From a virus: a DNA stretch of 64,000 nt. Both the position numbers and the translations under genes were made by a program. A model generated the notes under the pieces. That model did not search any database, was not told the origin of the DNA, and saw nothing but the letters and a program-made list of their open reading frames with translations. The stretch lies in IMG/VR virus record IMGVR_UViG_3300035181_001974, one strand, 5' to 3'. Below are positions 10,762 through 59,342 of the stretch, piece after piece. Position 1 is the stretch's first letter; every line of letters begins with the position of its first letter.

Positions 10762-11015
10762 GCTACACCTTCAGGCACAGTCACACGGCCTCGGGGAAGC
10801 AGCACGTCTTCCAAGGCCCAGGACTGAGTCAGCACGGTTCGAGCGTTCATCTGCAACAACACAACAACGAATGGGCTATCAAGTGCCTGAACGACGATAA
10901 GGATCGTCATGATCTTGCGGCGGACGTCATCTGTCACATGTTGGACCATGCTTACGAGGCCGGCCGTGAGGTGGCCCGGTTCGAGATTAGAGAGACATTG
11001 AGGATCATGAAATGA
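10758..11015 (+). CDS. hypothetical protein
   Basis: 85-aa ORF overlapping neighbours by 4 nt. Confidence 0.3.
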   Translation: MSYTFRHSHTASGKQHVFQGPGLSQHGSSVHLQQHNNEWAIKCLNDDKDRHDLAADVICHMLDHAYEAGREVARFEIRETLRIMK

Positions 11016-26602: not shown

Positions 26603-27445
26603 TCATTTTTGGCGTCCAACAAGAGCGTCGTTGTTCACAACACCGATCTTGCCAGGCGAGATGAGGTTCTTGATGAACTTCGAAACTTTTTTGGGTGGGA
26701 AAACGTCGTTCCCATCAGCAATTATAACTGTTTCAAACTAAAAACGCTTGTAAAGGATATCGGCAAGTTCTACGGCATCCCATTCGAGGAGACCAACGCT
26801 GCCACGCGGACCGTCGAGGACGAGGTCCGTAAGGCGACGATGAAGGAAGGCGACGACAAGAATCTGTTCGTCTTGACCTACGATGAGGCCATGGCCTTCC
26901 ACTGCAGGGCTCCTAAGGGCCCGGAGTCGAAGTCCATCTGCCAGGGCTGTAGCCCAGAGTGTAAGCAGCCGGTCAGCCCGTCGTTTCGCGGCTTCATTGA
27001 GAAGTACCCGGTCGTCGCCGAGTCGATCAAGATCCTCTTCAAGCAGAATCGTAGTCTCGGTCGTCACGCGGGTGGTGTGCTGATTGCAGACGATTTGCCC
27101 AACAAGATGCCTTTGGTGACGTCCAAAGGCAAGGCCGGCGTCCGCGAGCCACAGTCACCTTGGGTCGAGGGCGTAAATTATAAACACCTTGAGAAGATCG
27201 GAGAGTTCATCAAGTACGACCTCCTAGGTCTAGAAACGATGCGGCTCATCGAGCGCGCCATCGAGCTCATCATCAAAAAGGAACGACATGAAAGAGGGTG
27301 GTTTGAGATCCAACTCGACGATGGAACGACACGAGGCGTCTACGGCGACCAACGAATCGTCACCAGCAACAGGGGCACCATCCTTGCGAGGGAGCTCGGG
27401 CCCGGCGATGACATCGTGTCCTTCGAGGTGCCCACAGTGCAATGA
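26588..27445 (+). CDS. dnaE: very short C-part of intein 3 (at most 22 codons, ..HSFLASNKSVVVHN) + extein 4 (DnaE palm/fingers segment)
   Basis: VVVHN|TDLARRDEVLDELRNFFGWENVVPISNY..KTLVKDIGKFYGIPFEE aligns to E. coli [48 protein letters not shown]; later RHAGGVLIA, KYDLLGLETMRLIERAIELI; in-frame stop 3 codons upstream of the first listed start. Confidence 0.75.
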   Translation: MMVVHSFLASNKSVVVHNTDLARRDEVLDELRNFFGWENVVPISNYNCFKLKTLVKDIGKFYGIPFEETNAATRTVEDEVRKATMKEGDDKNLFVLTYDEAMAFHCRAPKGPESKSICQGCSPECKQPVSPSFRGFIEKYPVVAESIKILFKQNRSLGRHAGGVLIADDLPNKMPLVTSKGKAGVREPQSPWVEGVNYKHLEKIGEFIKYDLLGLETMRLIERAIELIIKKERHERGWFEIQLDDGTTRGVYGDQRIVTSNRGTILARELGPGDDIVSFEVPTVQ

Positions 27446-31094: not shown

Positions 31095-31412
31095 ATGAGC
31101 GCAGATCTTTACACTAGCGAGATCGATGACGATGTTTATGGATCTCTAACGCTAGAGATGAACGTTCATGGGAATTTGCGAATCATTGCATATGATCCTG
31201 GGACTAGAGATTTGGTAGGTTGCTGTCAGTTTCCACCCTCGCATGAGGGTTTCAACGAAGCCCAACGATTGATCAACGCTTTGCAAGAATGGATGCGTCA
31301 TGTGGGGGAAAATCTCAACCCTTGCCGAGTCGTTCTAGGCAGTGATGCTTTGTCGCGCTCAATGTCATTACACATTGTTTGTCAGACTCATCGTGAAACG
31401 GAGCGTAAGTGA
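31095..31412 (+). CDS. hypothetical small protein inside intein 5 gap
   Basis: 105-aa ORF, start 1 nt after previous stop. Confidence 0.35.
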   Translation: MSADLYTSEIDDDVYGSLTLEMNVHGNLRIIAYDPGTRDLVGCCQFPPSHEGFNEAQRLINALQEWMRHVGENLNPCRVVLGSDALSRSMSLHIVCQTHRETERK

Positions 31413-32110
31413 TGCCTGACGTAGTTCCCGTCAAGATCCGTGCGATCAAGCGTGTTCCTGCACAGCCTGTGTACGACATCCAGGTCAAGAAGAACAACAA
31501 CTTCTTCGCAAATGGCCTTCTCGTGCATAACTGCATAATTTTTCAGGAACAGGTGATGGAACTCGCCGAGAAGGCTGCCGGCTTCCCGAAGGACAAGTGT
31601 GACGAGGTCCGTCGCGCAATCATGAAGCGCAGCATCTCGGGCGGTGAGGCGGCAAAGAAGGCAGCCCAAGAGACCCGTGACGGGTTCGTCAAGGGTTGCA
31701 TCGCCAACGGTTATACCGAGAAGGTGGCCAACAACCTCTACGACAAGATTCTGTACTTCGCGGGCTACGGCTTCAATAAAAGTTTGTACTTTTCGGAACC
31801 AGTAAATACCTTTTTTTCAGACGGCACGTTCAAAGAGACAAAGCAGCTTCAACACATCGAACCCGGCGACCTGGTCATGTCTCGTGATGAGAATTCAGGT
31901 AAAAACATCCTCGTCCCTGTTGTTGCAAAACACGACCACGGTGAGCTAGACTTGGTAGAAGTGGAGTTGGTGACCGGAGAGAAGGTAAAGTGCACGTGGG
32001 ATCACAAGTTCAGGACGAAGGAGACAAACGAGATGTTGCCCCTGTGGATGATTGCCGAACGGGGCCTCAGCATCGTTGTGACCGATGTAGCAGGCTCTTC
32101 GTCTACCTGA
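31409..32110 (+). CDS. dnaE: C-intein 5 (31409..31531) + extein 7 (31532..31780) + N-intein 6 (31781..32107, Ser1)
   Basis: ...PVYDIQVKKNNNFFANGLLVHN|CIIFQEQVMELAEK...KILYFAGYGFNK|SLYFSEPVNTFFSDGTFKE...TWDHKF; extein matches E. coli GIILYQEQVMQIAQ...VEKFAGYGFNKS. Confidence 0.8.
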   Translation: MMPDVVPVKIRAIKRVPAQPVYDIQVKKNNNFFANGLLVHNCIIFQEQVMELAEKAAGFPKDKCDEVRRAIMKRSISGGEAAKKAAQETRDGFVKGCIANGYTEKVANNLYDKILYFAGYGFNKSLYFSEPVNTFFSDGTFKETKQLQHIEPGDLVMSRDENSGKNILVPVVAKHDHGELDLVEVELVTGEKVKCTWDHKFRTKETNEMLPLWMIAERGLSIVVTDVAGSSST

Positions 32111-33039
32111 AGGCCTACGAAAAACACCAAGCTAGGTGCCAAGGATTCATACTCGGTGACAGTGAGAGTGTCACATGCCAAGTCTGTGGCTTCACGGGTA
32201 AGGCACTGGCAAAGCACTTGTCGGGGACGCATGGTATGAGCAAAGAAGAATACCTGAAAGCGTACCCGACTGCCGCAATCACATCGAAAGTCTCGACAGC
32301 GCGTTTCAAGCATCGTGGGCAGAATTTCGCCTGGCTCAAACGAGCGAAGGCACGCGGTGATGATTTGACTGCCTACAAGGAAAAGATGGGCCGTGCGGTC
32401 AGTGAGGCCATCACGAGCAATCCGGGCGAGAGGAAACGTCGCTCTGAACTAATGGGAGAACTTAATCGACGACCTGAAGCCCGTAAACGTTCATCAGACG
32501 TTGCAAGACTAACGTCAACCCGGCCTGAGATACTCAAGGCACGTGCTGAGCGCCTGGCCCGTTGGCGTGAGTTGAACCCCGATGAGTTCTACGAAAAGTG
32601 CACAAAAGCTGCACATGCTATTTGGCATAGCATTCCGGAATTAGCGTTGTTTGATTTGTTGAAAAACGTTGAAGGTTATGATTTTGTTCATAATCAGGTC
32701 GTCAAGTCAGTTGCTTTTCCAAACAAATCTAAAAGAAAGCAAGTTGACATTGCCGATCGATCAAGACACATTTATGTTGAATTTGATGGAATCATCCATT
32801 TTAATGCACGTATTAAAGGCGAGGATAATTTTGAACGAGTGAAGTGCATGGATGCAATGCTTGATGATTACATCACTAAACATGATTGGACACTCATTCG
32901 AATTTCTTACGATCAGTTCTCATACAAGGATGGCGGTCGCTTCGAACCTGATTGCTTGAAAAAGCTTTTTGAGATCCTGAAAGATCCTCGACCTGGCGTT
33001 CATCGGATAGGAAAAGCGTATGAAAAGACCGCCGTTTGA
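31990..33039 (+). CDS. free-standing homing endonuclease (Zn finger + basic NUMOD-like linker + Vsr-like core) between halves of intein 6
   Basis: CDRCSRL..HQARCQ and CQVCGF..H finger; core HIYVEFDGIIHFNARIKGEDN...LIRISYDQF (DUF559/Vsr pattern). Confidence 0.65.
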   Translation: MHVGSQVQDEGDKRDVAPVDDCRTGPQHRCDRCSRLFVYLKAYEKHQARCQGFILGDSESVTCQVCGFTGKALAKHLSGTHGMSKEEYLKAYPTAAITSKVSTARFKHRGQNFAWLKRAKARGDDLTAYKEKMGRAVSEAITSNPGERKRRSELMGELNRRPEARKRSSDVARLTSTRPEILKARAERLARWRELNPDEFYEKCTKAAHAIWHSIPELALFDLLKNVEGYDFVHNQVVKSVAFPNKSKRKQVDIADRSRHIYVEFDGIIHFNARIKGEDNFERVKCMDAMLDDYITKHDWTLIRISYDQFSYKDGGRFEPDCLKKLFEILKDPRPGVHRIGKAYEKTAV

Positions 33040-33244
33040 AATCGCACTGAATGACATTGCCCAACGCATGGGTCTGAGTCCGATCGAACTGTTACGGGCC
33101 GCGGCACGTTACCGACGCAAAAGCGAAACGAAGGTTGAACTCCAGCCGACTGACGAGTACATTGAAGAAGAGTATGCTAAAGCAATGCTTGATGAACCGA
33201 ACGCAGGAGCGATCGAAGACCTGTTGAAGGACCTGCTCACATGA
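33020..33244 (+). CDS. hypothetical small protein
   Basis: 74-aa ORF between HEG6 and C-intein 6. Confidence 0.3.
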   Translation: MKRPPFEIALNDIAQRMGLSPIELLRAAARYRRKSETKVELQPTDEYIEEEYAKAMLDEPNAGAIEDLLKDLLT

Positions 33245-34371
33245 GTAACATCAAGTCTATCACACCCGTGGGTCGACACCAGACCTATGACCTCGAAGTC
33301 GATCACCCGGATCACCAGTTCTATCTCGCTAACGGGATACTGACGTCTAACAGCCATGCAGTGGCATACGCCATTGACAGCTTCTGGTGCGCCTGGCTGA
33401 TGACATATCACGAGGAGGAATGGCTGTGTGCCTATCTCGAAAGCATGTCGCACACTCCTGCTCAACGTGCTAAGGCGTTCAGCGAGGTAAAGGCCTTGGG
33501 CTATCAGATCGTCCCGATCGACATCAACCTGGCGGGGCTCGGGTGGACCGCGCTGCCCGGCAAGAAGTTGATGCCGTCGATGACGTCCTGCAAGGGTGTC
33601 GGCGACTCGGCGGTCGAAGAGATCATGGCCAACCGTCCCTACAACACTATCGAGGAGTTGCTGTGGGATGACAACTTCGAGTGGAAACACAGCAAGTTCA
33701 ACAAGAAGGCGATGGAGGCCCTGGTCAAGATCGGTGCCTTCGGCAGTATGGACATCGTGGGCGAAGGCAAGGTCTTCAACAACTATCATCACATGCACGA
33801 GGTCCTCTTCGGTTCTCACGTGGAGACCGTGACCAAGAAGCGCAAGGGCGTCGAGGTCACCGAAGAGGTCGACATCGATCACGGGGCGTTGATCAAGCGA
33901 CACCCGAAGTCTGACCCGCACGAGGGCCTTAAGAACTTCTACCAGTTGGTCAGGGACTACGCTGACATCGAGGACTGGTCGTCTTCTGAACGTGCTCAAA
34001 ATATGGTCGACGTCTTCGGTGCTTTGGACGTCACCGCCATGATTGACATCGAAATCTTGGCTGCCTTGGAGAAGAAGGGCGTCAATAGCATTGACGACCT
34101 GGAGCACGGTGACACGGCGGTCGTCTGGTTTGTCACGGCCCCTGTTGCTGCAAAGAAGGGTGGCAAGCCGGTGACGGGCATCAAGAAGAAGACCCGCAAT
34201 GGCAAGGAATATGTGCAAATCTTTGCGGTTGGACCCACTGGCAAGGCCACGAAGATTTCTGTCTGGGGCGGCAAGGAGCTTCCTGACCCCTTCATCCTGT
34301 GTTGTGCCGAGGTCAAGAGGGACGACTTTGGCGCGTCGACGACGGTCTGGAAGTTGAGGGAAATCACGTAA
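33241..34371 (+). CDS. dnaE: C-intein 6 (33241..33351, ends TSN) + extein 8 = DnaE C-terminal region (fingers end, OB domain)
   Basis: MSNIKSITPVGRHQTYDLEVDHPDHQFYLANGILTSN|SHAVAYAIDSFWCAWLMTYH..; LGYQIVPIDINLAG matches E. coli GLKILPPDINSG; KGVGDSAVEEIMANR matches KGVGEGPIEAIIEAR. Confidence 0.8.
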   Translation: MSNIKSITPVGRHQTYDLEVDHPDHQFYLANGILTSNSHAVAYAIDSFWCAWLMTYHEEEWLCAYLESMSHTPAQRAKAFSEVKALGYQIVPIDINLAGLGWTALPGKKLMPSMTSCKGVGDSAVEEIMANRPYNTIEELLWDDNFEWKHSKFNKKAMEALVKIGAFGSMDIVGEGKVFNNYHHMHEVLFGSHVETVTKKRKGVEVTEEVDIDHGALIKRHPKSDPHEGLKNFYQLVRDYADIEDWSSSERAQNMVDVFGALDVTAMIDIEILAALEKKGVNSIDDLEHGDTAVVWFVTAPVAAKKGGKPVTGIKKKTRNGKEYVQIFAVGPTGKATKISVWGGKELPDPFILCCAEVKRDDFGASTTVWKLREIT

Positions 34372-40547: not shown

Positions 40548-41885
40548 ATGGAACACAAGAGGCTCTTGATCGAGACACAGTTGAGCAATTACAATACCTA
40601 CGGTAAGTTTCTGCTCGAATGTGACTCAGGATGGCAGATGGTGATGGGCCGCGTCCGTGAAATGCTGAAGCTCAATCCTGACCTTCACATTGACGTGATG
40701 TGCCCCAAGACGGGTGATCCCGCTGGTCGTCAGGTTATCACAGATCCCCGGGATGTCAATGCTGACCTGTGGGCCAAGTACGGTGAGGATGGCGAGCGCC
40801 GTCTGAATTTCATCGAGCACGAGATCATCGCCAACGCGTTGGTGACACGGTACGACTTCAACTGGTCGGCACTCGCCAGTGCCCTTGATCTCGGAATGCA
40901 GAAGATCGGCAAAAAGCCCAAGTGGGACGCGGTCTACATCAACGACCCAATGCACCTTCGCAACTTCAAGGCGTTGTTCCACGTGACTGGTGGTTATAGG
41001 CCCAGGTTTTACGTGCACAGTCACTTCGTCGACGTACCTTCTTGTCCCAAGTTTCCGGAAGAGGCCTCGCTCTGGTTCGGCCAGCTTGAGGCAGCCATAA
41101 AGGCTGACTGGAACTTCTGGCAGTGTCCCTCGGCCTTGAAGGAGTTCGAGCGCGAGGCTGACAATGTCCTGAAGCGGGACATTGTCAATGACATCTTGAT
41201 GAAGTCGGATCCCTGGGACGATGGTTACTCAGCCGAGGAGATCAACTCTAAGCCCGACATGAGCAACGTCAGGTTTGATCCCGACCTGTTGAATCGCTGG
41301 CACGCCGAAGGCAAGGTCATCCTCTTCGTCCCGAACCGTGTCGGCGGGCGCGGTCGTTCGTCGGACTACACCAACTGTGGCAAGTTCATGTTTGACATCT
41401 TGCCGAAACTCCGTGAACTGCGCCAGGACTTCGTTGTGCTAGCGGGCAACCCCAGCCAGAAGTTCTTCAACCACGAGCTCGAGAAGGAGTGCGGGCCTAA
41501 TGGCTACGTTTCATTGGTCCCGGATGCCTTTAACCGCGACGAGTTCAAGGTCATCTGTCGTCAGGCTGACATCGCTGTCAGCCTCTATGATCAGGACACC
41601 TATGGGGGCACCGCCGCTCGAGAATGCATTGAGCTCGGGTGTATGCCTCTGTGGATCGATAACTTCGAATATTCGAGCATCGCTCAGGAGGCCAGTAAGT
41701 GGCCCTTCTTGGCGTCGCCGGACTTCAAGGATCTGCATCACATTGCTTCAGCTTTGATTCATAACATCAAGGAACGACCTGCGTACATGAAGGACTGGCT
41801 CGATCGTCTGCGGACGGTCGTCCGAGCTCGATGTTCGTACGAGGCCACGACGCCGATGGCGATGAAGCGCATGGACCTGCTGTGA
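40548..41885 (+). CDS. putative GT-B fold glycosyltransferase
   Basis: C-terminal half KVILFVPNRVGGRGRSSDY...ADIAVSLYDQDTYGGTAARECIELGCMPLW resembles the GT4-like nucleotide-sugar binding domain; weak. Confidence 0.4.
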   Translation: MEHKRLLIETQLSNYNTYGKFLLECDSGWQMVMGRVREMLKLNPDLHIDVMCPKTGDPAGRQVITDPRDVNADLWAKYGEDGERRLNFIEHEIIANALVTRYDFNWSALASALDLGMQKIGKKPKWDAVYINDPMHLRNFKALFHVTGGYRPRFYVHSHFVDVPSCPKFPEEASLWFGQLEAAIKADWNFWQCPSALKEFEREADNVLKRDIVNDILMKSDPWDDGYSAEEINSKPDMSNVRFDPDLLNRWHAEGKVILFVPNRVGGRGRSSDYTNCGKFMFDILPKLRELRQDFVVLAGNPSQKFFNHELEKECGPNGYVSLVPDAFNRDEFKVICRQADIAVSLYDQDTYGGTAARECIELGCMPLWIDNFEYSSIAQEASKWPFLASPDFKDLHHIASALIHNIKERPAYMKDWLDRLRTVVRARCSYEATTPMAMKRMDLL

Positions 41886-42212: not shown

Positions 42213-43007
42213 ATGAAGAAGTCAGAGCTTGTTCAAATGATCCGTGAAGAGGTACTCGCCGTCGTAGCCAACCTCATGGAGGCCGCTGCAGCGCCTCCGA
42301 AGTCATTTTCCGAGTTTCGCAAGGCATTTGCCATGGCGCTCGAACAGGCCGGTGCGCCGGATGATCTCGTCGACGAGGCCCTCGATGAGGATTACGAAGG
42401 TGGGCCCATCTTCGGCGCGATTTACGAGGCGTGGACCAATATCGAGGCCGAGATGTCTGGCATCCGTGATCCTGCAGAACGCCATGATACGTGGCTCGAT
42501 ATGGTCGAGTTCTACGTTCACGATGCAGTTCTTGACATGGCGGACAGTTACTTCAACGCCATGAACTATGCCCCAGGTCACAGGCCCGCAAAGTTCGATC
42601 CGAAGGCACTGGCAACGGCCGTCGTTTCCGTGATGTCGGGTTCGAAGACAACTGCTCTCATCAAGAAGGCTCCGAAGACGCTGACTGAGGTCGTCAATGC
42701 TGTGCGTGAGGCCATACGCCTCAAGGGGACGAAGGTCACCTGTTCGCCCATGCCGGATGCAAAGACGTTGAAGACGAAGTGCAGTATGATGGTTCCGCCC
42801 GAGCAGTGCATGAAAGTGTCAATATATCTTGATGAGGTCATGATAAAGCTTGGATTTGAGTCCTCGATCGAGGATCCTGCTGCGATCCTAGCAGACACTT
42901 CCGATGAGGGTTTGTTTGCCGACTACACCAGCCCGTCAATTCGTGGTGTCTTGGATGCTGACCCTGTCCGGGGTACCATCTTTTTGTCGCTAAACACGAC
43001 CCGTTGA
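42213..43007 (+). CDS. hypothetical protein with N-terminal leader-like motif (MKKSELVQMIREEVL)
   Basis: 264-aa ORF; upstream GGTAATAATTACC. Confidence 0.4.
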   Translation: MKKSELVQMIREEVLAVVANLMEAAAAPPKSFSEFRKAFAMALEQAGAPDDLVDEALDEDYEGGPIFGAIYEAWTNIEAEMSGIRDPAERHDTWLDMVEFYVHDAVLDMADSYFNAMNYAPGHRPAKFDPKALATAVVSVMSGSKTTALIKKAPKTLTEVVNAVREAIRLKGTKVTCSPMPDAKTLKTKCSMMVPPEQCMKVSIYLDEVMIKLGFESSIEDPAAILADTSDEGLFADYTSPSIRGVLDADPVRGTIFLSLNTTR

Positions 43008-44184: not shown

Positions 44185-44844
44185 TTGATTCAAATTCAAT
44201 ACAAGGTTGCCGATGTTCGCTCCTTGTTTAAGGACCTCAAGGAACGCCAGGAACACGTTACTGACAAGTCTGGTTGCAAGATGATCGAGGTCGTCGGTGC
44301 TACGTTCATCGCTAACGAAACATCGATCTTCGGAACGGTCAATCAGGACTACGTGGCTCGTGAGATTGAATGGTATCGCTCCATGTCACGGAACGTCAAT
44401 GACATCCCCGGTGGAGCACCAGCGGTCTGGAAGGCTTGTTCATCGAAGAGAGGCGAGATCAACTCCAATTATGGTTACCTCATCTGGAGCGAGGACAACT
44501 ACAAGCAATATGACCACGTGCTAGCAGAGCTGAAGCGTGCTCCGGAGAGCCGGCGTGCCGAGATGATCTATACGCGGCCCTCAATCTGGAAGGAATATAA
44601 CCGCGATGGGATGAGTGATTTCATCTGCACGGACTCAGTTCAGTATTTCATTCGCAACGGTCAAGTCATTGCTGACGTTCGCATGAGGTCGAACGACGTC
44701 GTCTTTGGATACAAGAACGACAAAGCCTGGCAGGATTATGTTCACCAGCAGTTGGCGGCAGATTTGGGTCTACCCGTGGGTCCAATGATCTGGCACGCTG
44801 GGTCACTTCATGTCTATGAACGACATTGGAATCTCATTGATTGA
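44185..44844 (+). CDS. deoxycytidylate 5-hydroxymethyltransferase (T4 gp42-like, ThyA fold)
   Basis: long collinear matches to T4 gp42: KGEINSNYGYLIWSEDNYKQYD, PESRRAEMIYTRPS, DGMSDFICTDSVQYFIRNG, VRMRSNDVVFGYKNDKAWQDYV, AGSLHVYERH; TTG start. Confidence 0.85.
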   Translation: MIQIQYKVADVRSLFKDLKERQEHVTDKSGCKMIEVVGATFIANETSIFGTVNQDYVAREIEWYRSMSRNVNDIPGGAPAVWKACSSKRGEINSNYGYLIWSEDNYKQYDHVLAELKRAPESRRAEMIYTRPSIWKEYNRDGMSDFICTDSVQYFIRNGQVIADVRMRSNDVVFGYKNDKAWQDYVHQQLAADLGLPVGPMIWHAGSLHVYERHWNLID

Positions 44845-45124: not shown

Positions 45125-45303
45125 ATGAAGCGCAAGCCCGTACCTAACATTGAGGACCTCTTCGTGGCGGCGATTCAATCGTCGCTTGAGGCAGCGCACC
45201 TCCTCAAGTTGTCGCACGACCAGTTCATGGCCCTTGTGGAAGGTGCTTGGCAGGTCGATGCGGAACGTATGTCGAAAGAAACCCAAGAAGGCAAGGAGAA
45301 ATA
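45125..45303 (+). CDS. hypothetical small protein (59 aa, below ORF-track cutoff)
   Basis: ATG at 45125, ends ...EGKEK* just before 45307; located in an otherwise AT-richer intergenic region. Confidence 0.3.
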
Positions 45304-45306
45304 GCA

Positions 45307-45852
45307 ATGACCTGTATCATTGGTTTGGTGGACGGTAAGAACGTGTGGCTCGGCGGCGATCGTGCCGCGACGGGCGGCAATCTAGGTCGCACCCTCATCA
45401 AGCATCCCAAGATCTTCACGAAGAGCGGTATTGGCATCGGCGTCAGCGGCTCGTCCAAGGTCATGGATGCCATCCAACACGCCATCGAGTTCCCGAAGCA
45501 CGAGGAAGGCGTGGCGACTAAGACGTTCCTCGTTAATGATCTGATCCCGGCCTTCCGCGAGGGTCTGAAGAAGCTCGACTGCCTCGTTGAACACCACGGG
45601 CAGTGGTATTTTCACGGTGCCTTGTTGATCGGGTACAGAGGCGAACTGCACATGGTCGAGGGCAACTTCCAGCTCATTGAGAGTGCACGGGAGTTTGACG
45701 CGATCGGCAGCGGCGCCGAGCCAGCACTGGGTAGCCTCCGTGCCACGCGAAATGAGGGGCCGAAGAAGAGGATCCTCGAGGCGCTCAAGGTTTCTGCAGA
45801 AAACAATGCCGGCGTCGCACCACCGTTTGACACCCTGATGGTGAAAGGTTGA
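45307..45852 (+). CDS. HslV / proteasome-beta-like Ntn-hydrolase, paralog 1
   Basis: MTCIIGLVDGKNVWLGGDRAATGG.. compare HslV [24 protein letters not shown]; C-terminal DAIGSGAEPALGSLRA matches HslV AIGSGGPYAQAAARAL. Confidence 0.6.
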   Translation: MTCIIGLVDGKNVWLGGDRAATGGNLGRTLIKHPKIFTKSGIGIGVSGSSKVMDAIQHAIEFPKHEEGVATKTFLVNDLIPAFREGLKKLDCLVEHHGQWYFHGALLIGYRGELHMVEGNFQLIESAREFDAIGSGAEPALGSLRATRNEGPKKRILEALKVSAENNAGVAPPFDTLMVKG

Positions 45853-45855
45853 ACC

Positions 45856-46401
45856 ATGACCTGCATTGTCGCACTGGAACACGAGGGTACTGTCTGGGTC
45901 GGTGGTGACTCTGCAGGCATCGATGGTTTGAGCATCTGCAACCGGGCCGATGAGAAGGTCTTTATCAACGAGAACCTCATCATGGGGTTCTGCGGGTCCT
46001 TCCGCATCGGTCAGTTGCTACGCTACTCGCTCGAGGTCCCCGAGCAATCGGTGAAGCAGACCGACGACATGGAGTACCTGGTCAATGACTTTGTTGATGC
46101 TGTCAGAGAACTCCTGAATGAGAAGGGCGCGGCGAAGAAGGAGAACGAGCTGGAAGAGCATGAGTCGTCCTTCATCGTTGGCTTCAAGGGTAAGATTTAC
46201 GTGGTTGAAGAGGACTACCAGGTGGGTCGACCCCGTGAGAACTACGCGGCCGTGGGCTGCGGCGCCCAGATCGCTCTGGGCGCCCTGTACGCTACGAGGA
46301 ACAGCAACATGCAACCCCAAGATCGTCTCCGCGTGGCCCTCGAGGCCGCAGCAGAGTACAGCGCGGGCGTTCGAGGACCCTTCGCCTTTTTGAGCCTCTG
46401 A
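45856..46401 (+). CDS. HslV / proteasome-beta-like Ntn-hydrolase, paralog 2
   Basis: MTCIVALEHEGTVWVGGDSAGIDG..; AAVGCGAQIALGALYA. Confidence 0.6.
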   Translation: MTCIVALEHEGTVWVGGDSAGIDGLSICNRADEKVFINENLIMGFCGSFRIGQLLRYSLEVPEQSVKQTDDMEYLVNDFVDAVRELLNEKGAAKKENELEEHESSFIVGFKGKIYVVEEDYQVGRPRENYAAVGCGAQIALGALYATRNSNMQPQDRLRVALEAAAEYSAGVRGPFAFLSL

Positions 46402-46413
46402 CACAGGAGAGAG

Positions 46414-46989
46414 ATGCAGAACCCTTCCTTCACCGTTTTCTGCGGTCCGATGTTCTCGTCAAAAACATCGCGACTGTTGATGGAACTGGAGCGTTGCAAG
46501 TTCCAGCACAAGTCCGTCGCGGTCTTCAAGCCGCAGATCGACACTCGTTATGCAGTCGGTGACATTGTCAGTCACAGCGGCTGGCGAGCGCAGGCTGTGA
46601 CGGTGAAGGAAGGCGCCGACCTGTTGCAGCACATCCTCGACAGCGACACCGACTACAAGGTCATCGCTGTCGACGAGGCCTTCATGATTCACGGGATCGC
46701 TGAAGTGCTAATTTTCTTGTATCGCTCGGGTTTCTCGATCATCGTCTCCACGTTGGACATGGCCGCCAATGGGAAGCCATTCCCGGAAGTCACCCAACTG
46801 TTGCCTTGGGCGACCGAGGTCATCAAGTGTACCGCTGTCTGCACTGTTTGCGGCCGTGATGCTCATTATACGCATAAGAAGGTCACGGGCGGTGATGAAC
46901 ACACCGTCGAGGTGGGCGGCGACGAGCTCTACGAGCCGCGGTGTTGGGAGCACCACTTGCTGATCAACAACAAGCACAAGATGCCTTGA
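46414..46989 (+). CDS. tdk: thymidine kinase
   Basis: P-loop VFCGPMFSSKTS; zinc motif CTAVCTVCG...C..H; size 191 aa. Confidence 0.85.
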   Translation: MQNPSFTVFCGPMFSSKTSRLLMELERCKFQHKSVAVFKPQIDTRYAVGDIVSHSGWRAQAVTVKEGADLLQHILDSDTDYKVIAVDEAFMIHGIAEVLIFLYRSGFSIIVSTLDMAANGKPFPEVTQLLPWATEVIKCTAVCTVCGRDAHYTHKKVTGGDEHTVEVGGDELYEPRCWEHHLLINNKHKMP

Positions 46990-47004: not shown

Positions 47005-47457
47005 ATGACGCTAAAATCACTCATTACCGAGGCGGTACGGGCGCACCTGTTTGAACAGGTCCGCAAGAAGTTCAACATGCACCTGCCCGATGATCTCAGG
47101 CAGTTGGCGACCCTCTTCAAGAGCGCTGGACACCAGCTCTACGTTGTCGGCGGTTCAGTCCGCGATGCTTTGCTGGGCAAGGAGCCCAAGGATTACGACG
47201 TTGCGACTGAGGCGACTCCTGACCAGGTTATTTCGCTCCTGGAGACTGATCCCGGCCTCAAGATCCTGCCCATCGGCAAGTCATTCGGCGTCGTCAAGGT
47301 GATCACTCCCGAGGGCGGTGAATATGAGATCGCCACCTTCCGCAAGGAGACGTATGCTTCTAATACTAGGGATGACTTTGTGAAGTTTATCCGCGCAAAG
47401 GGACCAGAGTATGAGAAAAGGCTTCGTCTGTTCATTGATCGATCCGATCACGCCTAA
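47005..47457 (+). CDS. cca: CCA-adding tRNA nucleotidyltransferase, N-terminal piece (head domain) - gene interrupted
   Basis: LYVVGGSVRDALLGKEPKDYDVATEATPDQV...GEYEIATFRKETY is the class II CCA/polyA polymerase head; the continuation motif (RRDLTINA) is found only in the downstream ORF 47654..48529. Confidence 0.75.
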   Translation: MTLKSLITEAVRAHLFEQVRKKFNMHLPDDLRQLATLFKSAGHQLYVVGGSVRDALLGKEPKDYDVATEATPDQVISLLETDPGLKILPIGKSFGVVKVITPEGGEYEIATFRKETYASNTRDDFVKFIRAKGPEYEKRLRLFIDRSDHA

Positions 47458-47614
47458 AATTCGTTACGTTGGTATAACTGTAGGACCGTGGAATAAAGGT
47501 GTTCTGGCAACTCAAGAACACAAACGTAAATTGGGTGTTCCCAAGCCCCTAGAACAAAAGAACATTCAGAACGTATTGCTCAATCAAAACGTGAAATGTG
47601 GGCAAAAGGATTGA
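47411..47614 (+). pseudogene. GIY-YIG homing-endonuclease-like relic inside the CCA gene interruption
   Basis: KGFVCSLIDPITPKIRYVGIT mirrors I-TevI GIYQIKNTLNNKVYVGSA (GIY...YIG spacing); ORF only 67 aa. Confidence 0.4.
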
Positions 47615-47653
47615 CCGGTCGACTTACTACAACTTCTAAGAAAGACGTAACAG

Positions 47654-48529
47654 ATGACGTGGCAAAAGATAGCAAAGGAAATATTTCCTGAAGAATTCAA
47701 GCAATTTGAAAGACTTAATGGTCGTCGGCCCGACGCGGTCGAGTTCACTGACATTGCTTCGGACGTGCAGCGCCGCGATCTGACGATCAACGCCTTGTTC
47801 TACGACATCGACAAAGGGGAGATCGTCGACTTCGTCGGCGGAATCGACGACATCCAGAACGGGATCGTCAAGGCAGTTGGAGACCCAGGTGCGCGATTTG
47901 CAGAAGACAGGTTGCGCATCCTGCGGGCCCTGCGATTTGCGACACGCATGGGGTCACAACTTGACCCTGCGACGGCTCAGGCCATCAAAAATGACAATAA
48001 GTTGAGCGGGGTTTCCCCTGAACGAATTAGAGACGAGTTTTTGAAGGGCATTCTAGCGACCCGATCTGTGCCGTCGTTCCTTGACATGATGGAGGAGTAC
48101 GACCTCTGGCCACAGGTGTTCCCGGGTCTTAACGTTGCGCGGGTTCCGATCGACACGAAGAACGTGCCGGTGGTTCTCGCCCGATTGTTGTGGGGTAACG
48201 CTCCCGATCTTGTGGCAAAGCGCCTTAATGCGTTGAAGTACTCTGCCGACGAGGTAGCGCAGGTGACGTTTCTCCTGCGATTCAAGGACTTGACTCCCGA
48301 GAATGCCTTCAGGCTACGCAAGGCTTACCTGATCAGCAAGCTGTCGGACAAGGACTTGATTGAGTTCGCTGCAATGAAGAGCACGCCTGAACCGCGCTTG
48401 GTTCGAGCCTTCCTGAAGTACAGGCCCACCATCACAGGTGATGAGCTAATGGCACAAGGATTCACGGGCGCTCAGTTGGGCAAGGAGATGGAGCGCCGTG
48501 AGACGGAGCTCTTCAAGGAGTTACTGTGA
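47654..48529 (+). CDS. cca: CCA-adding tRNA nucleotidyltransferase, C-terminal piece
   Basis: GRRPDAVEFTDIASDVQRRDLTINALFYDIDKGEIVDFVGGIDDIQNGIV...AVGDPGARFAEDRLRILRALRFATRMG = canonical continuation of the head plus neck. Confidence 0.75.
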   Translation: MTWQKIAKEIFPEEFKQFERLNGRRPDAVEFTDIASDVQRRDLTINALFYDIDKGEIVDFVGGIDDIQNGIVKAVGDPGARFAEDRLRILRALRFATRMGSQLDPATAQAIKNDNKLSGVSPERIRDEFLKGILATRSVPSFLDMMEEYDLWPQVFPGLNVARVPIDTKNVPVVLARLLWGNAPDLVAKRLNALKYSADEVAQVTFLLRFKDLTPENAFRLRKAYLISKLSDKDLIEFAAMKSTPEPRLVRAFLKYRPTITGDELMAQGFTGAQLGKEMERRETELFKELL

Positions 48530-48984
48530 TGACCCACAATAGCGAAGAACTGCGGCCCACCTGGCCTTCGATCTGGATGGCAGTCGCCAAGACGATTGCC
48601 TTGCGTTCTTACGATCCCAGGCTAAAGGTGGGCGCCATCGTCGTCTCATACGACAATACCCAGATGTTGTCGATCGGGTACAACGGCAACTACAAAGGCG
48701 GGCCACACGAGCACGAGTCGAAGGAACCTGGCAAGTCAGGCTTTATTCACGCCGAGGTCAATGCGCTGGTCAAGTGTGACTTCAACTTTCCCAAGAAGAA
48801 ACACCTGTACGTGACTCACAGCCCGTGCAAGGACTGCGCCAAGTTGATCATCAATGCTGAGATTGCCCGAGTTGTTTATGAGATTCCCTACCGCGATCCG
48901 GCAGGGCTAAATCTCCTGCGGTCCGTCGGTATTGAAGTGCTATCGCTAGAGGATGCGATTATCAACTCAAGATTGGCCCGTTGA
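48526..48984 (+). CDS. dCMP deaminase
   Basis: zinc-binding HAEVNAL and PCKDCAKLI motifs; 152 aa. Confidence 0.85.
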   Translation: MMTHNSEELRPTWPSIWMAVAKTIALRSYDPRLKVGAIVVSYDNTQMLSIGYNGNYKGGPHEHESKEPGKSGFIHAEVNALVKCDFNFPKKKHLYVTHSPCKDCAKLIINAEIARVVYEIPYRDPAGLNLLRSVGIEVLSLEDAIINSRLAR

Positions 48985-49244: not shown

Positions 49245-49529
49245 ATGAAGACACTGACTGAGGCTGATGTCCTTCGCATTATGCGTGAGGAATGGGATAA
49301 CAAGGTCAATCAACTCGCTGAGACCATCGACGTCGCACTGACGGCGAAACTGGGCAAAGGTGATGAGAAGATCGTCATCTCTCCCGAGCTAAAGGTACTG
49401 CACAAGAAGAGCGGCATCCGCTACACGGTTGACTCCGTCGGGCCCCGCGATTGCATTCTCCGAACGCCGGAAGGTGAGACCTTCCTTGTTGACGCTACAA
49501 CCTTGGAGCAAGAATATGAGCTTGACTGA
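49245..49529 (+). CDS. hypothetical protein
   Basis: 94-aa ORF. Confidence 0.35.
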   Translation: MKTLTEADVLRIMREEWDNKVNQLAETIDVALTAKLGKGDEKIVISPELKVLHKKSGIRYTVDSVGPRDCILRTPEGETFLVDATTLEQEYELD

Positions 49530-50226
49530 CAAAGACACGGGCCTCGACGTCGACGGCCTTCTAAGGAAGTCCGTGAAGGAGACGATGGGCGCGGCACGCG
49601 AGCCTCTCAAGGAAGCGTACGTGGCCGAGCAGAAGCCCTTCAAACAGGTCTCCGAGCTCATCTCACAGAAGACCAAGGACGCTCACACCGCCCTCTACAA
49701 GGACTACATTGAGCAAGTGAATCAGGTCTCGTCGGAGCTCGACACCGCAGATCGTTCGGGTGCCAATTCGAAGCACAGCGACTTCAGATCGTTGAAGCTA
49801 GACGAGGCATACAACCTCAATGCCGTCTGGCTGCACGAGTTGTACTTTGCCAACTGTTTCGATCCTCACAGCGAGATCGTGATGGATTCGATCTCGTACC
49901 TGAAGCTACAGCGTGACTTCGGGACCTTCGAGGACTGGCAACGTGACTTCATTGCCTGCGGCATGGCGGCGGGCAACGGTTGGGTGGTGTGCGGTTATCA
50001 CGCCTTCTTGAAGCGCTATGTCAATGTCATCATCAGCAATCACAGCCAGGACGTCATGGTTGGGTTGTACCCTATCATCGTGGTCGACATGCATGAACAT
50101 GCCTACTACCGCGACTACCTGTCCGACAAGAAAAGCTATCTCATCTCGCAGATGCGCGAGTTCAACTGGACCGTGATCGAAGACCGCTTCAAGCGCGGTG
50201 AGGCGATTGCAGTGGCGGTGAAGTGA
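49516..50226 (+). CDS. Fe/Mn superoxide dismutase-like protein
   Basis: C-terminal NGWVVCGYH...PIIVVDMHEHAYYRDY matches SOD G.GWAWL...P.LG.DVWEHAYY; N-terminal His ligands only partly conserved; start taken at MSLTDKD. Confidence 0.55.
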   Translation: MSLTDKDTGLDVDGLLRKSVKETMGAAREPLKEAYVAEQKPFKQVSELISQKTKDAHTALYKDYIEQVNQVSSELDTADRSGANSKHSDFRSLKLDEAYNLNAVWLHELYFANCFDPHSEIVMDSISYLKLQRDFGTFEDWQRDFIACGMAAGNGWVVCGYHAFLKRYVNVIISNHSQDVMVGLYPIIVVDMHEHAYYRDYLSDKKSYLISQMREFNWTVIEDRFKRGEAIAVAVK

Positions 50227-54142: not shown

Positions 54143-54910
54143 ATGGACTTCGGGCAACCTAACGCAGTAATTGTTGCAGCAGTTCAGTTCGAGCCTAAGC
54201 TGTTCGACGTGAGGCAGAACCTCGCGACAGCGCAGCAGTTGGCCTTCGAGGCTGCTGCAAAGGGCGCTCGCGTGATCGTGTTGCCCGAGCTCTGCACCTC
54301 CGGCTATGTCTTCCGCAATCCCCGCGAGGCGATGGAGTGCGCTCAGACCCGTGATGGGTACCAAACAGAAGCGTTCCTGCCGATCGCTCGACGGTTCAAC
54401 TGTCACATCGTCTTCGGTTATCCAGAGCTCCGCGAAGGCATGCTGTACAACTCAGCGGCTACCGTGGGCCCTGGAGGCCTCGTAGGAAATTCGCAGAAAC
54501 ACAACCTATGGGGCAATGACAATCTTTGGGCGCAGCCTTCAGATGTTCAACATGAGGTCCTGGTAACTCCGGTCGGTCGCCTGGGTGTGCTGATCTGTCG
54601 GGATGCCATGAACAAGTACCGGGAATCGTACCAGTTCTTCAAGCCCGGTCACAAGTTCTATCCCAAAGGCTCAGTCGACACCATTGCACTGTTGACCAAC
54701 TGGGGCGCTGCCTTCGGTTATCCTGACTCGGCCTGGGTCGAGCTGGTCGAGGACACTCGAGCCAACTTGATCGTCAGCAACCGCGTGGGTGAAGAACGTG
54801 ACCTGAAGTGGAAGGGCGGTTCCTGCATCATTGACCGCGATCGTCGGATCTGGACCAATGGCTCTTCCTTCACAGAGTCGGCCGTCGTCGGTGGAGTGGT
54901 GTTGCTGTGA
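54143..54910 (+). CDS. carbon-nitrogen hydrolase (nitrilase superfamily)
   Basis: VAAVQFEP...RVIVLPELCTSGY (catalytic Glu), LICRDAMN (catalytic Cys). Confidence 0.65.
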   Translation: MDFGQPNAVIVAAVQFEPKLFDVRQNLATAQQLAFEAAAKGARVIVLPELCTSGYVFRNPREAMECAQTRDGYQTEAFLPIARRFNCHIVFGYPELREGMLYNSAATVGPGGLVGNSQKHNLWGNDNLWAQPSDVQHEVLVTPVGRLGVLICRDAMNKYRESYQFFKPGHKFYPKGSVDTIALLTNWGAAFGYPDSAWVELVEDTRANLIVSNRVGEERDLKWKGGSCIIDRDRRIWTNGSSFTESAVVGGVVLL

Positions 54911-56963: not shown

Positions 56964-57225
56964 GAAGGAAACGTTGGTCGAGTACATCCAGTTGGTGGCT
57001 GAGGCCCGGATGCGTGAGGCCGACGTTTCCGATGGCACGAGGGTTCCACACGGATCAACGAAGCACATCAAGGACCTCGAGGCCCGCATTGCTGATCTGA
57101 CGCGGTGGCGTGACAAGCAACGTAAAGGTTCTGAGGCACGAGCCAACTATGCCCGCGTGGTCGCTCGCCTGAAGGCAGAGTTGAAGTCAGCGAGGCGCGC
57201 CGCAGAAAAGGCGAAGAAGAAATGA
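56956..57225 (+). CDS. hypothetical small basic protein
   Basis: 89 aa. Confidence 0.3.
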   Translation: MAEKETLVEYIQLVAEARMREADVSDGTRVPHGSTKHIKDLEARIADLTRWRDKQRKGSEARANYARVVARLKAELKSARRAAEKAKKK

Positions 57226-59342
57226 TCCTGAATGAAGGCGGTGCTGCAGGTCACCTGCAACACCTGTACGAAAATCTGGAGCTAACCTTTGGCGAGATCA
57301 AAGAGGTCATCACCAATGCCTCGGAGGGCAAACTGGAGAAGGCTTCTGAGAAGCTCGATGGCATGAACCTCGTCTTCACCTACGACGTGTCGGAGGGTCG
57401 CCTGAAGGTCGCCCGCACCGGCAGTGACATCAAGGGAGGAGGCATGGACGCGGCGGGCCTGGCGAAGAAGTTCTTCGGACGCGGAAATGTGGAGGTCGCC
57501 TTCAATTCGGCCTTTAAGGTCCTAAATGATGCCCTAGGATCGCTCGGCAAGCAGGACGCAATCAAGGTCTTTGGCGAGACGGGCACGCGGTGGTACTCAA
57601 TGGAGATCATCTACTCCCCAGAGCCCAATACCATCATCTACGATTCCAACAGCATCATTTTTCACGGGTGGCCTATCTTTCAGGTCAACAAGGACGGCAG
57701 CGTCGACCAGACCGACGATGACACCGGTGTTGAGCTGCTTTCAAGGCGCGTTGACCAGATGCAGAAGGCGATCTCGCTCCGCGACTGGCGAGTCCGCGGG
57801 CCCTCTCTGCTCAACTTGAAGCGATTGTCGGATGGCAGCGTGGCAGCCAAGGCCATCTCGCGGATTGATGCGGCAATGGCCACTGCGGGCGTCGATGATT
57901 CCAACACGGTCTATGACTACCTGCGTGTCCTGATGTCGCAGGAGGTCGCAGAGCTCGGGCTGCCCAAGTCTGCCGCCGCCGCCGTTGTTGAGAGGTCGAT
58001 CACGGCGCCCGGAGCTCCAGGCGTGCCGGAGATCAAGAAGATGCTGCCTAAGGAACAGCAAGCTGTCGCTGCTGACTTCGTCAAGCGTTCCGAAGACCTT
58101 CTGAAGCGTATGGTCCAGCCCATCGAACAGGCGATCACGGATTTTGCAATTGAGGTGCTCCGTGGTGTTGACTCGACGTTGATCTCCAAGTCTGACGAGG
58201 AGGTCGCCCGTCTCCGTGCGCAGTTGCAGAAGGCGATCAGGGCAATCGAGGCCTCAGGTAACGCAGCAGCGATGGACGTCCTGCAGAAGGAAATGTCTCG
58301 CCTGGGCCGCGTTGAAAATATCAGTGCGGCGATGGAAGGCATGGTCTTCTTCTACAAGGGCAAGGCCTACAAGTTTACGGGCGCATTTGCGCCAGCTCAC
58401 CAGATCTTGTCATTGTTCAAGTACGGACGCAAGGGCATCCCGAAAATGGACATTGGCGAGGCACGTCTACGCGCCGCTATTAGCCGCCTCCTCCGTGAGG
58501 GCGGCCATGCCTTTGACAACGTGGGCCCAATCTCACTGCAGGACTTTCGTTCTGTTTGGCCTCAGTTGAAGGCCGACCTGATGGCACTGGGCTGCACCAA
58601 GGTCGAATTTATTGGCACCACGGGCAAGAAGCAGCTGATGGGCGACATCGACCTGGCGGCAGAATATCCTGGGACCCGCGATGAACTCTACGCTGCCGCC
58701 GTCGACATGTTTGGCAAGTCTTCAGTCGAGAAGATCGGATCGAACATCGTCTCTATCAGCTATCTGGTTCCCTCGTCTGGGACTCACGTGCAGGTTGACG
58801 TGATGATGGGCAAGGTCGGCTACATGACCTGGTCCCGCTTCGGAACCTCACCTGATCCGGGCCACGTGGACTACTCGCCCGTCAAGGGCGTCGGTCGCAA
58901 TGTGTTGCTCAACGTCATCAATAGGTTCGCGGCGGCTCAGCAGTTCCCAGGCCAGCAGACCGACCTTGATCGCACGCGTTACAGTGTTGACTTCGACAAA
59001 GGCCTGTTCAAGGTCGTCCAGACCAAGCGTAACAAAACGCCCGGCAAGCCACCACTCAAGGACTGGCGCACGGTGGAGCGTGAGCTGGTCAGCGACGATC
59101 CCAACAAGATTGCCTCTGTGATGTTCGGCAAGGGCGTCAAGGCTGACGATCTCCGCCGCATCGAAGACGTGGCCGCAGCGCTCAGGCGCTCGCCGCTGCT
59201 CAATAGGCTCGCACCTGAGATTCTTGCCACGTTTGCTCAGGAAATGAGGGAGTTGGTGGCTAAGACGCCCCACATGCTGGGAGATGACCCTGATAGTGCA
59301 CTCCGCTATATCGATATGATAGCTAGTGGCAAGGAGACTTAG
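57222..59342 (+). CDS. hypothetical large protein (706 aa)
   Basis: long uninterrupted ORF, no motif recognised. Confidence 0.45.
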   Translation: MILNEGGAAGHLQHLYENLELTFGEIKEVITNASEGKLEKASEKLDGMNLVFTYDVSEGRLKVARTGSDIKGGGMDAAGLAKKFFGRGNVEVAFNSAFKVLNDALGSLGKQDAIKVFGETGTRWYSMEIIYSPEPNTIIYDSNSIIFHGWPIFQVNKDGSVDQTDDDTGVELLSRRVDQMQKAISLRDWRVRGPSLLNLKRLSDGSVAAKAISRIDAAMATAGVDDSNTVYDYLRVLMSQEVAELGLPKSAAAAVVERSITAPGAPGVPEIKKMLPKEQQAVAADFVKRSEDLLKRMVQPIEQAITDFAIEVLRGVDSTLISKSDEEVARLRAQLQKAIRAIEASGNAAAMDVLQKEMSRLGRVENISAAMEGMVFFYKGKAYKFTGAFAPAHQILSLFKYGRKGIPKMDIGEARLRAAISRLLREGGHAFDNVGPISLQDFRSVWPQLKADLMALGCTKVEFIGTTGKKQLMGDIDLAAEYPGTRDELYAAAVDMFGKSSVEKIGSNIVSISYLVPSSGTHVQVDVMMGKVGYMTWSRFGTSPDPGHVDYSPVKGVGRNVLLNVINRFAAAQQFPGQQTDLDRTRYSVDFDKGLFKVVQTKRNKTPGKPPLKDWRTVERELVSDDPNKIASVMFGKGVKADDLRRIEDVAAALRRSPLLNRLAPEILATFAQEMRELVAKTPHMLGDDPDSALRYIDMIASGKET

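Follow-up and report, generated by a model that had tools for sequence, protein, structure and literature searches.

We analyzed a 64,000-nt stretch of viral DNA (IMG/VR record IMGVR_UViG_3300035181_001974), here called the window, in which an open reading frame (ORF) for a protein resembling gp42, the deoxycytidylate (dCMP) hydroxymethylase of phage T4, lies among genes for nucleotide metabolism and sugar-nucleotide chemistry. An earlier sequence-only reading had proposed that this phage replaces cytosine (C) with 5-hydroxymethylcytosine (hmC). The ORF was found exactly where that reading had placed it, on the plus strand, and encodes 219 aa (Table 1). It begins with TTG, 5 nt after the end of a GGAGG ribosome-binding site and immediately after the stop codon that ends a small preceding ORF. 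Alignments by tblastn to T-even phages cover residues 1–219, and because they begin at residue 1, the TTG start is credible.

Family identity and active site of the hydroxymethylase

In a phmmer search against all PDB sequences, T4 deoxycytidylate hydroxymethylase was the best match (PDB ID code 1b49, E=8.3e-76), and the top entries 1b49, 6l18, and 6a9a spanned E=8e-76 to 1e-73. The alignment runs without rearrangement from query residues 16–219 to T4 residues 17–226, in agreement with the collinearity described earlier, and the four peptide blocks quoted in support of it all occur in the translation. ThyA proteins appeared in the same search from 3.6e-13 on, far behind gp42, and a MilA-type CMP hydroxymethylase appeared at 3e-7. 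The protein also matched the thymidylate synthase family of Pfam (PF00303, 1.9e-16) and phrog_160 of PHROGs (1.5e-50). The best tblastn matches among deposited phages were all Tevenvirinae gp42 orthologues, annotated as “dCMP hydroxymethylase” (47–56% identity); the tier below them consisted of thymidylate synthase homologues of Microbacterium phages (28–31% identity). T4 gp42 (PDB ID codes 1b49, 1b5e, and 6a9a) is ∼55% identical and has the same catalytic, cofactor, and specificity residues. At 246 aa it is longer than the window protein, which ends at T4 position 226, 20 residues before the T4 C terminus, and also has no counterpart to a T4 loop of 7 residues.

For a residue-level comparison, the window protein was aligned with E. 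coli ThyA, T4 gp42, and the homologue at the gp42 position of the RB69-like Mosigvirus AV114 (L005). Up to residue 179, the numbering of the window protein is that of T4, and the two share K28, E60, W82, Y96, R123, R124, S144, D145, C148, T149, M167, R168, S169, N170, D171, G175, and D179; further on, H209 and Y211 correspond to T4 H216 and Y218. K28, E60, W82, S94, Y96, R123, R124, D145, C148, D171, D179, H216, and Y218 (T4 numbering) are invariant in 123 relatives, a pattern that indicates purifying selection.

Work on the T4 enzyme identifies C148 as its nucleophile and D179 as the residue that protonates cytosine at N3 (PMC6400193). The catalytic Cys and the Asp for dCMP specificity had been reported as present, and they are indeed C148 (EcC146 in E. 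coli ThyA numbering) and D179 (the EcN177 position, Asp in 123/123 relatives), numbered exactly as in T4; the general acid/base Glu60 accompanies them. The EcN177D exchange confers dCMP specificity (PMC13326640; for T4 D179, also PMC6400193), and an acidic residue at EcL143 (L143D/E) correlates with hydroxymethyl rather than methyl products (PMC13326640). Both the window protein and its family keep D145 at the latter position, along with S94 and Y96, part of a water network that promotes hydration rather than hydride transfer. Moreover, the window protein ends 8 residues past the HVY motif, shorter than T4 gp42 and ThyA, and therefore lacks the C-terminal tail with which ThyA closes its active site for hydride transfer. 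The mechanism of T4 gp42 and its own lack of the thymidylate synthase C-terminal tail have been described (PMC6400193).

These residues bear directly on the product. dCMP methyltransferases, which give 5-methyl-dC as in Xanthomonas phage XP12, and dUMP hydroxymethylases, which give 5-hydroxymethyluracil as in SPO1, also fall into PF00303, and annotation pipelines label all of these enzymes “thymidylate synthase.” We rejected thymidylate synthase as an identity for the ORF, its signature residues following T4 gp42. The methylase and dUMP hydroxymethylase identities were rejected on signature residues as well, and we regard them as very improbable: Asp179 specifies cytosine, Asp145 stands in place of the water-excluding Leu143, the C terminus is too short to close the active site for hydride transfer, 5-hydroxymethyl-dCMP (hmdCMP) is the product of T4 gp42, whose active site is identical, and a separate ThyX already covers dTMP synthesis.

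The enzyme might instead be a flavin-dependent 5-hydroxy-dCMP synthase of the RB69 gp48/DLP3 gp80 type, whose product, 5-hydroxycytosine (5hoC), carries ether-linked sugars. A thymidylate synthase homologue with N177D and L143D/E that is encoded next to glycosyltransferases and sugar-nucleotide genes can belong to a 5hoC system, and the RB69 enzyme was long misannotated as a hydroxymethylase (PMC13326640). RB69 gp48, DLP3 gp80, and the RL38JI enzyme likewise have the thymidylate synthase fold, act on dCMP, and cluster with nucleotide-sugar genes and DNA glycosyltransferases (arabinosyl or hexosyl transferases); they need a cognate kinase, depend on flavin mononucleotide (FMN) and O2, and are diagnosed by Asn at EcD169 (PMC13326640). 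The Mosigvirus homologue has Asn186 at this position, whereas the window protein, like T4 and 123/123 relatives, has Asp171. In addition, W82, G175, and Y211 follow T4 and not the 5hoC enzyme, identity is ∼55% to T4 gp42 vs. ∼26% to the Mosigvirus 5hoC-type homologue, and the window ORFs scanned include no arabinose-5-phosphate isomerase or AfhE/F-like gene. Rejected on its signature residues, this alternative retains a probability close to nil; the window enzyme would be expected to add a hydroxymethyl group via folate rather than a hydroxyl group via FMN and O2. In annotating metagenomes, hydroxymethylases can be told apart from 5-hydroxy-dCMP synthases by the recent D169N rule. We conclude that the ORF very probably encodes a T4-type dCMP hydroxymethylase with hydroxymethylase activity.

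Table 1. Positions of the hydroxymethylase gene and other features of the window, with the evidence for each
Feature	Coordinates	Strand	Evidence
ThyX flavin-dependent thymidylate synthase	1408..2172	+	PF02511 6.9e-37
Thymidylate kinase family protein (Tmk)	2181..2762	+	PF02223 7.6e-13
All-alpha nucleoside triphosphate pyrophosphohydrolase (NTP-PPase), gp56 homologue, 128 aa	3509..3895	+	BLASTP, hhalign, PF08761
RlaP nucleotidyltransferase	4721..5677		
PNKP kinase-phosphatase	5764..6768		
RNA ligase	8451..9338		
Metallophosphoesterase	9913..10761		
Tandem N6_N4-type DNA methyltransferases	11012..11803, 12532..13314		
Second short-chain dehydrogenase/reductase (SDR) sugar-nucleotide enzyme, 4,6-dehydratase/UDP-xylose-synthase-like	19205..20227	+	PF16363 3.7e-47, PF01370 9e-45
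DnaE piece, N-terminal	20677..22362		
Hint/intein segments	23829..24566, 31409..32110		
Homing-endonuclease-like ORF	24869..26602	-	
DnaE piece, NTPase domain	26588..27445		
Homing-endonuclease-like ORF	27288..29087		
DnaE piece, finger	31409..32110		
ROS_MUCR/HNH ORF	31990..33039		
DnaE piece, HHH_6 C terminus	33241..34371		
LRV-repeat protein, 1018 aa	35035..38094	-	
Divergent P-loop nucleoside/nucleotide kinase-like protein, 179 aa	39045..39584	+	phrog_761 “thymidylate kinase” 1e-9
Class I S-adenosylmethionine (SAM)-dependent methyltransferase-fold protein, 227 aa	39586..40269	+	AlphaFold2 pLDDT 89.4
GT-B fold glycosyltransferase, 445 aa, candidate hmC-DNA glycosyltransferase	40548..41885	+	AlphaFold2 + Foldseek
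264-aa protein between glycosyltransferase and epimerase	42213..43007	+	No family match
NAD-dependent sugar-nucleotide 4-epimerase, GalE/TviC-like, 319 aa	43040..43999	+	PF01370 6e-51
Probable dCMP hydroxymethylase, T4 gp42-type	44185..44844	+	219 aa; PDB phmmer, PF00303, phrog_160
Two adjoining HslV/proteasome-like Ntn-hydrolase genes	45247..46401		
Thymidine kinase Tdk	46414..46989	+	PF00265 5.6e-38
CCA-adding (PolyA_pol) enzyme, split	47005..48529		
dCMP deaminase	48526..48984	+	PF00383 5.5e-19; ComEB-like 5.7e-18
Fe/Mn-superoxide dismutase (SOD)-like protein and carbon-nitrogen hydrolase	49429..50226, 54143..54910		
706-aa ORF	57222..59342		

Nucleotide supply, replicase, and phage lineage

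Pfam or PHROGs matches confirm each of the companion enzymes that had been listed for the hydroxymethylase, namely ThyX, the Tmk-like protein, the MazG/dUTPase_2-like NTP-PPase, the P-loop kinase-like protein, Tdk, and dCMP deaminase (for which the gene caller’s start is 48529). The Tmk family protein also matches TIGR00041 at 6.8e-13, below the cut-off, and PDB Tmk entries at 1e-10. The P-loop kinase-like protein reaches AAA_28 at 2.6e-5, again below the cut-off, and a profile built from eight of its orthologues gave weak PDB matches to YorR, deoxyguanosine kinase, deoxynucleoside kinase (dNK), and Cmk (E ∼1e-3). Its gene is kept near the gp42-like gene in relatives, and from this conservation next to modification genes, we infer a candidate hmdCMP kinase.

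The all-alpha NTP-PPase had been named as a candidate dCTPase, and comparison with T4 gp56, the dCTPase/dUTPase of T4, strengthens that proposal. The protein scores 26.3 bits against dUTPase_2 (PF08761), a marginal match of the kind given by gp56 itself (25.5 bits), and it also matches PRA-PH, phrog_12184, and phrog_173. BLASTP aligned its last 61 residues with gp56 at 38% identity (E=2e-11), and hhalign aligned a profile of its 38-sequence family with gp56 over 122 columns (window residues 7–128 to gp56 residues 27–170; probability 97%, E=1e-10). Judged by these alignments, it is a genuine full-length homologue of gp56 and a putative dCTPase. An N-terminal truncation of the window protein was considered and rejected, given that the extensions of its 165- to 172-aa relatives are not conserved and the window core is complete.

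The replicase is of the DnaE type, unlike that of T4, as had been stated, but its gene is split into several pieces in the window. Relatives carry an intact DnaE of 1176–1252 aa (PHP, DNA_pol3_alpha, finger, and HHH_6 domains) a few kilobases upstream. DnaE is only ∼25% identical to that of Bacillus and Streptomyces phages. At least four pieces are present in the window, and among them lie Hint/intein segments, two homing-endonuclease-like ORFs of ∼580–600 aa, and an ROS_MUCR/HNH ORF. The gene is intact and single at the related loci L003, L007, and L008, and it is fragmented similarly in L009. The 1018-aa ORF that was implicitly the earlier candidate for DnaE was rejected, being a protein with leucine-rich-repeat-variant (LRV) motifs and not a polymerase. 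It is among the few large minus-strand genes and looks like a lineage-specific insertion because L007 and L008 have short plus-strand genes in its place. When T4 gp42 was expressed in E. coli, plasmid DNA gained 5-hydroxymethyl-dC (5hmdC) through the host replication machinery (PMC13326640); a DnaE-type replicase would, therefore, be no obstacle to incorporation.

The exact hydroxymethylase protein was found on an 87-kb Logan contig from SRR11723144, and exact copies of the glycosyltransferase and the methyltransferase-fold protein were found on a 309-kb contig. More than 100 distinct relatives of the hydroxymethylase (63–89% identity, mostly 219 aa) occur on contigs of up to 325 kb. The genome is that of an uncultured jumbo-phage lineage with ∼55% GC, unrelated to T4-like phages. 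A near-identity DNA search with 40–50 kb of the window found no match among deposited phages, and tblastn of the glycosyltransferase against deposited phages likewise found none; by these searches, the lineage has neither a cultured nor a deposited relative. A further scan, of GTDB genomes, also turned up no close relatives and hence gave no clue to the host. Straboviridae, the T4-like phages, have a family-B polymerase (gp43) and a T4-like core genome; here the replicase is of the DnaE type, and no deposited phage matches the 40–50 kb searched at the nucleotide level.

Sugar genes and conserved gene order

Upstream of the hydroxymethylase gene, the 4-epimerase gene adjoins it both in the window and in every relative examined (L003, L007, L008, L009, and L010–L013). 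Its best NCBIfam models are TviC and GalE (∼5e-45), below the equivalog cut-offs. The 264-aa protein encoded next to it has no Pfam, PHROGs, NCBIfam, or PDB match and is weakly or partially conserved in relatives. The 445-aa glycosyltransferase has no Pfam, NCBIfam, PHROGs, or PDB-sequence match either, hence none to any family of T4 glucosyltransferases, and when the 445-aa, 264-aa, and 248-aa ORFs were compared with PDB by sequence, only noise came back. The glycosyltransferase assignment comes from an AlphaFold2 model based on a 32-sequence alignment (predicted local distance difference test, pLDDT, 91.1; predicted template modeling score, pTM, 0.87), for which the top Foldseek matches in PDB were GlgM, glycogen synthase, MshA, BshA, and OtsA (E=1e-13 to 1e-10). 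The best BFVD match was a glycosyltransferase of Arthrobacter phage Kitkat (TM 0.72), and the list also includes the cyanophage S-TIM5 “DNA alpha-GT” and proteins of T4-like phages and of SP-15. The family, with 415 homologues at 57–67% identity, has a GT4-like “YGGTAARECIELGC-PLW” segment in its consensus.

Foldseek matches of the methyltransferase-fold protein included METTL6, DhpI, Hen1, and the sugar N-methyltransferases TylM1/KedS8 (E ∼1e-6), and many of its homologues carry PF13489. The second SDR enzyme, encoded farther upstream, has dTDP-glucose 4,6-dehydratase (8e-34) and UDP-xylose synthase (1e-23) as its best NCBIfam models; its orthologue in L003 (57% identity) lies ∼5 kb from the gp42-like gene, and it may contribute to making the donor sugar. 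Far downstream, neither Pfam nor PHROGs gave a match for a 706-aa ORF. Over its first 400 residues, it shares ∼29% identity with a Microcystis phage Mel-JY01 product annotated “cytidylyltransferase like protein” and with ORFs of two uncultured 460- to 480-kb phages (LR756500 and LR756508). A nucleotidyltransferase, if this is one, could be relevant to the supply of sugar nucleotides.

Relatives at 58–82% identity, on contigs of 150–325 kb, share the order kinase, methyltransferase, glycosyltransferase, epimerase, gp42-like gene, two HslV-like genes, Tdk, CCA enzyme, and dCMP deaminase. In L003 (67% identity), two epimerases and the kinase stand beside the gp42-like gene. A 366-aa ORF beside its second epimerase was considered as a glycosyltransferase and rejected, showing no similarity to the glycosyltransferase profile. 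At two more distant gp42-like loci (45–47% identity), three conserved ORFs without Pfam matches follow the hydroxymethylase gene (L016, 10620–14098; L018, 10656–13730); their products measure ∼330–340, 306–327, and 378–387 aa, and in L016, they are followed by a dCMP deaminase gene. These may be unrecognised modification genes.

Other genes of the region are also conserved. The two HslV/proteasome-like Ntn-hydrolase genes directly downstream of the hydroxymethylase gene recur in relatives, as do the Fe/Mn-SOD-like protein and the carbon-nitrogen hydrolase encoded downstream of the nucleotide-metabolism block. In relatives (L003, 15719–16842; L007, 18924–20347), a gene for pterin-4a-carbinolamine dehydratase lies beside the hydrolase gene or one small ORF away. 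The CCA-adding enzyme is a single protein of 384–388 aa in relatives; in the window, an interruption of its head domain, after the “ATFR” segment and before “GRRPD,” splits it into 150-aa and 291-aa ORFs separated by a 197-bp gap. Scanned against Rfam, neither this gap nor the window as a whole gave a match, and no intron model fits the gap. RNA-repair-like genes near the start of the window encode the RlaP nucleotidyltransferase, PNKP kinase-phosphatase, RNA ligase, and metallophosphoesterase, and together with the CCA enzyme, this set recalls the Pnk/Rnl tRNA-repair system of T4. Two tandem N6_N4-type DNA methyltransferase genes follow; if cytosine is hypermodified, adenine N6 rather than cytosine N4 seems the likelier target of their products.

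Proposed pathway and its significance

In the pathway that we propose, the gp42-like enzyme would convert dCMP and 5,10-methylene-tetrahydrofolate to hmdCMP, with Cys148 attacking C6, Asp179 reading and protonating the cytosine ring, and the exocyclic methylene intermediate being hydrated instead of reduced, in a pocket where Asp145 would admit water. The gp56-like NTP-PPase would degrade dCTP and dCDP to dCMP, thereby feeding the hydroxymethylase and keeping dCTP from the polymerase, and dCMP deaminase, ThyX, Tmk, and Tdk would supply dTTP. One of the two Tmk/dNK-like kinases, more likely the cluster-encoded P-loop protein, would phosphorylate hmdCMP, the host nucleoside diphosphate kinase would then make hmdCTP, and the DnaE-type replicase would put it into the genome throughout. 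After replication, the GT-B enzyme may add a sugar to the hydroxymethyl group, using a nucleotide-sugar donor from the adjacent 4-epimerase, possibly with the second SDR enzyme, and the methyltransferase-fold protein possibly decorates the sugar further. The outcome would be restriction-resistant DNA. Four-base palindromes (GATC, CCGG, GGCC, GCGC, and others) are not avoided in the window (observed/expected 0.98–1.02), which is compatible with this scheme and not diagnostic of it. Taken whole, this account of hydroxymethylase, hmC replacement, and later glycosylation is our best explanation, and we consider it reasonably likely.

Its parts are not equally secure, and several observations weigh against it. 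The underlying sequence was assembled from short metagenomic reads. The supply chain had been called complete and T-even-like; ThyX, Tmk, Tdk, dCMP deaminase, and the gp56 homologue bear out part of that description, but “complete” goes too far, as T4 gp1, the hmdCMP kinase, has no homologue here, neither window kinase resembling gp1 by BLASTP or profile comparison. The kinase step would thus fall to one of two Tmk/dNK-like kinases, weakly assigned P-loop proteins. The gp56 homologue may be no more than a dUTPase or a general house-cleaning enzyme, and no counterpart of T4 Alc or of the T4 cytosine-DNA-specific nucleases was identified. With such a gp56 homologue, the phage might make hmdCMP and yet replace C only in part or conditionally, dCTP being poorly excluded. 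In favor of this reading, no nuclease specific for cytosine-containing DNA was found, the substrate specificity of MazG/dimeric-dUTPase-like proteins is unreadable from sequence, and the PF08761 match is marginal. Against such partial replacement, the profile homology to gp56 extends over the full length of the protein, and MazG/PRA-PH-like genes co-occur with thymidylate synthase homologues specifically on cytosine-modified metagenomic contigs (PMC8670742). We judge partial replacement to be quite unlikely; hmC is probably incorporated instead of most or all C.

The later glycosylation is the less certain step. With genes for a GT-B glycosyltransferase, a 4-epimerase, and a methyltransferase-fold protein beside the gp42-like gene, hmC is a probable glycosylation precursor. 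The glycosyltransferase profile, however, shows no sequence relation to T4 beta-GT by hhalign, the nearest solved structures belong to enzymes acting on small molecules or glycans, and DNA as the acceptor is only a guess. This glycosyltransferase is not encoded within 10 kb of the gp42-like gene in L003. At the distant gp42-like loci L014, L016, and L018 (45–52% identity), the neighbors have no glycosyltransferase or epimerase Pfam matches, and hhalign of the glycosyltransferase profile against them was negative. Furthermore, the whole region, and not the sugar genes alone, is collinear among relatives, so that adjacency is weak evidence of functional linkage. The structural neighbors, the lack of relation to beta-GT, the collinearity, and L003 would suit a phage whose hmC stays unglycosylated, with its GT-B enzyme, epimerases, and methyltransferase-fold protein serving other purposes, such as virion-protein glycosylation or remodeling of the host envelope, and lying near the gp42-like gene only through the collinearity of the early region. 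Nevertheless, an epimerase lies directly beside the gp42-like gene even in relatives at 66–67% identity. Type IV restriction systems target DNA that contains bare hmC, and for this reason, further modification of hmC is the usual outcome.

Related systems point the same way. To add a sugar to 5hmC in DNA, phage glycosyltransferases often depend on a partner epimerase, and metavirome GT-B pathways are preferentially linked to thymidylate synthase homologues (bioRxiv 10.1101/2023.12.21.572611). With this dependence on epimerases documented, we hold unglycosylated hmC to be unlikely, though not negligible as a reading, and give further glycosylation of hmC, as in T4, an even chance.

The window resembles the T-even pathway in its gp42-type enzyme, gp56-homologous NTP-PPase, dCMP deaminase, thymidine kinase, and GT-B fold glycosyltransferase. 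It differs in having no gp1-type deoxynucleoside monophosphate kinase, ThyX instead of a ThyA-type Td, a DnaE-type replicase instead of gp43, a glycosyltransferase unrelated in sequence to beta-GT, and an added epimerase and methyltransferase-fold gene. Metaviromic clusters share with it an N177D homologue, a MazG/PRA-PH-like protein, dCMP deaminase, a GT-B enzyme, and an epimerase (bioRxiv 10.1101/2023.12.21.572611; MetaGPA, PMC8670742). Genes for the first three are the top markers of cytosine-modified metavirome contigs (PMC8670742), and clusters of a thymidylate synthase homologue, GT-B enzyme, and epimerase have already been catalogued (bioRxiv 10.1101/2023.12.21.572611). The glycosyltransferase/epimerase pairs that the preprint tested experimentally derive from clusters in which a methyltransferase and a TET/5mYOX enzyme form 5hmC post-replicatively, and its GT-B enzymes resemble T4 beta-GT, whereas the window enzyme resembles retaining GT4/GT5/GT20 enzymes. 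The window ORFs scanned included no detected carbamoyltransferase.

The anti-restriction strategy is, therefore, known, and the phage lineage carrying the genes is new; what may prove novel is which sugar is attached and whether anything decorates it further. Tentatively, and with the balance of our judgment on the doubtful side, the cluster may make an undescribed modification, in which hmC would carry a non-glucose sugar (such as a galacto-hexose, N-acetylhexosamine, or pentose) with a donor from the phage 4-epimerase, possibly aided by its dehydratase/decarboxylase-like SDR enzyme. A retaining-type GT-B enzyme without sequence relation to the T4 glucosyltransferases would attach this sugar, the methyltransferase-fold protein might methylate it, and a gp42/gp56 pair akin to that of T-even phages but distinct from it would work with a DnaE that incorporates hmC. 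Such DNA resists many restriction enzymes and can bias library preparation and sequencing, and the cluster enzymes could serve as reagents for 5hmC chemistry. Close copies of the hydroxymethylase are abundant in metagenomes, with >100 distinct sequences at ≥63% identity. The classical T4 strategy of cytosine replacement, with its pair of gp42 and gp56 homologues, is now placed in a different, uncultured lineage of jumbo phages with a DnaE replicase, in which hmC may acquire a new glycan through a compact gene set (kinase, methyltransferase, GT-B enzyme, epimerase, and hydroxymethylase).

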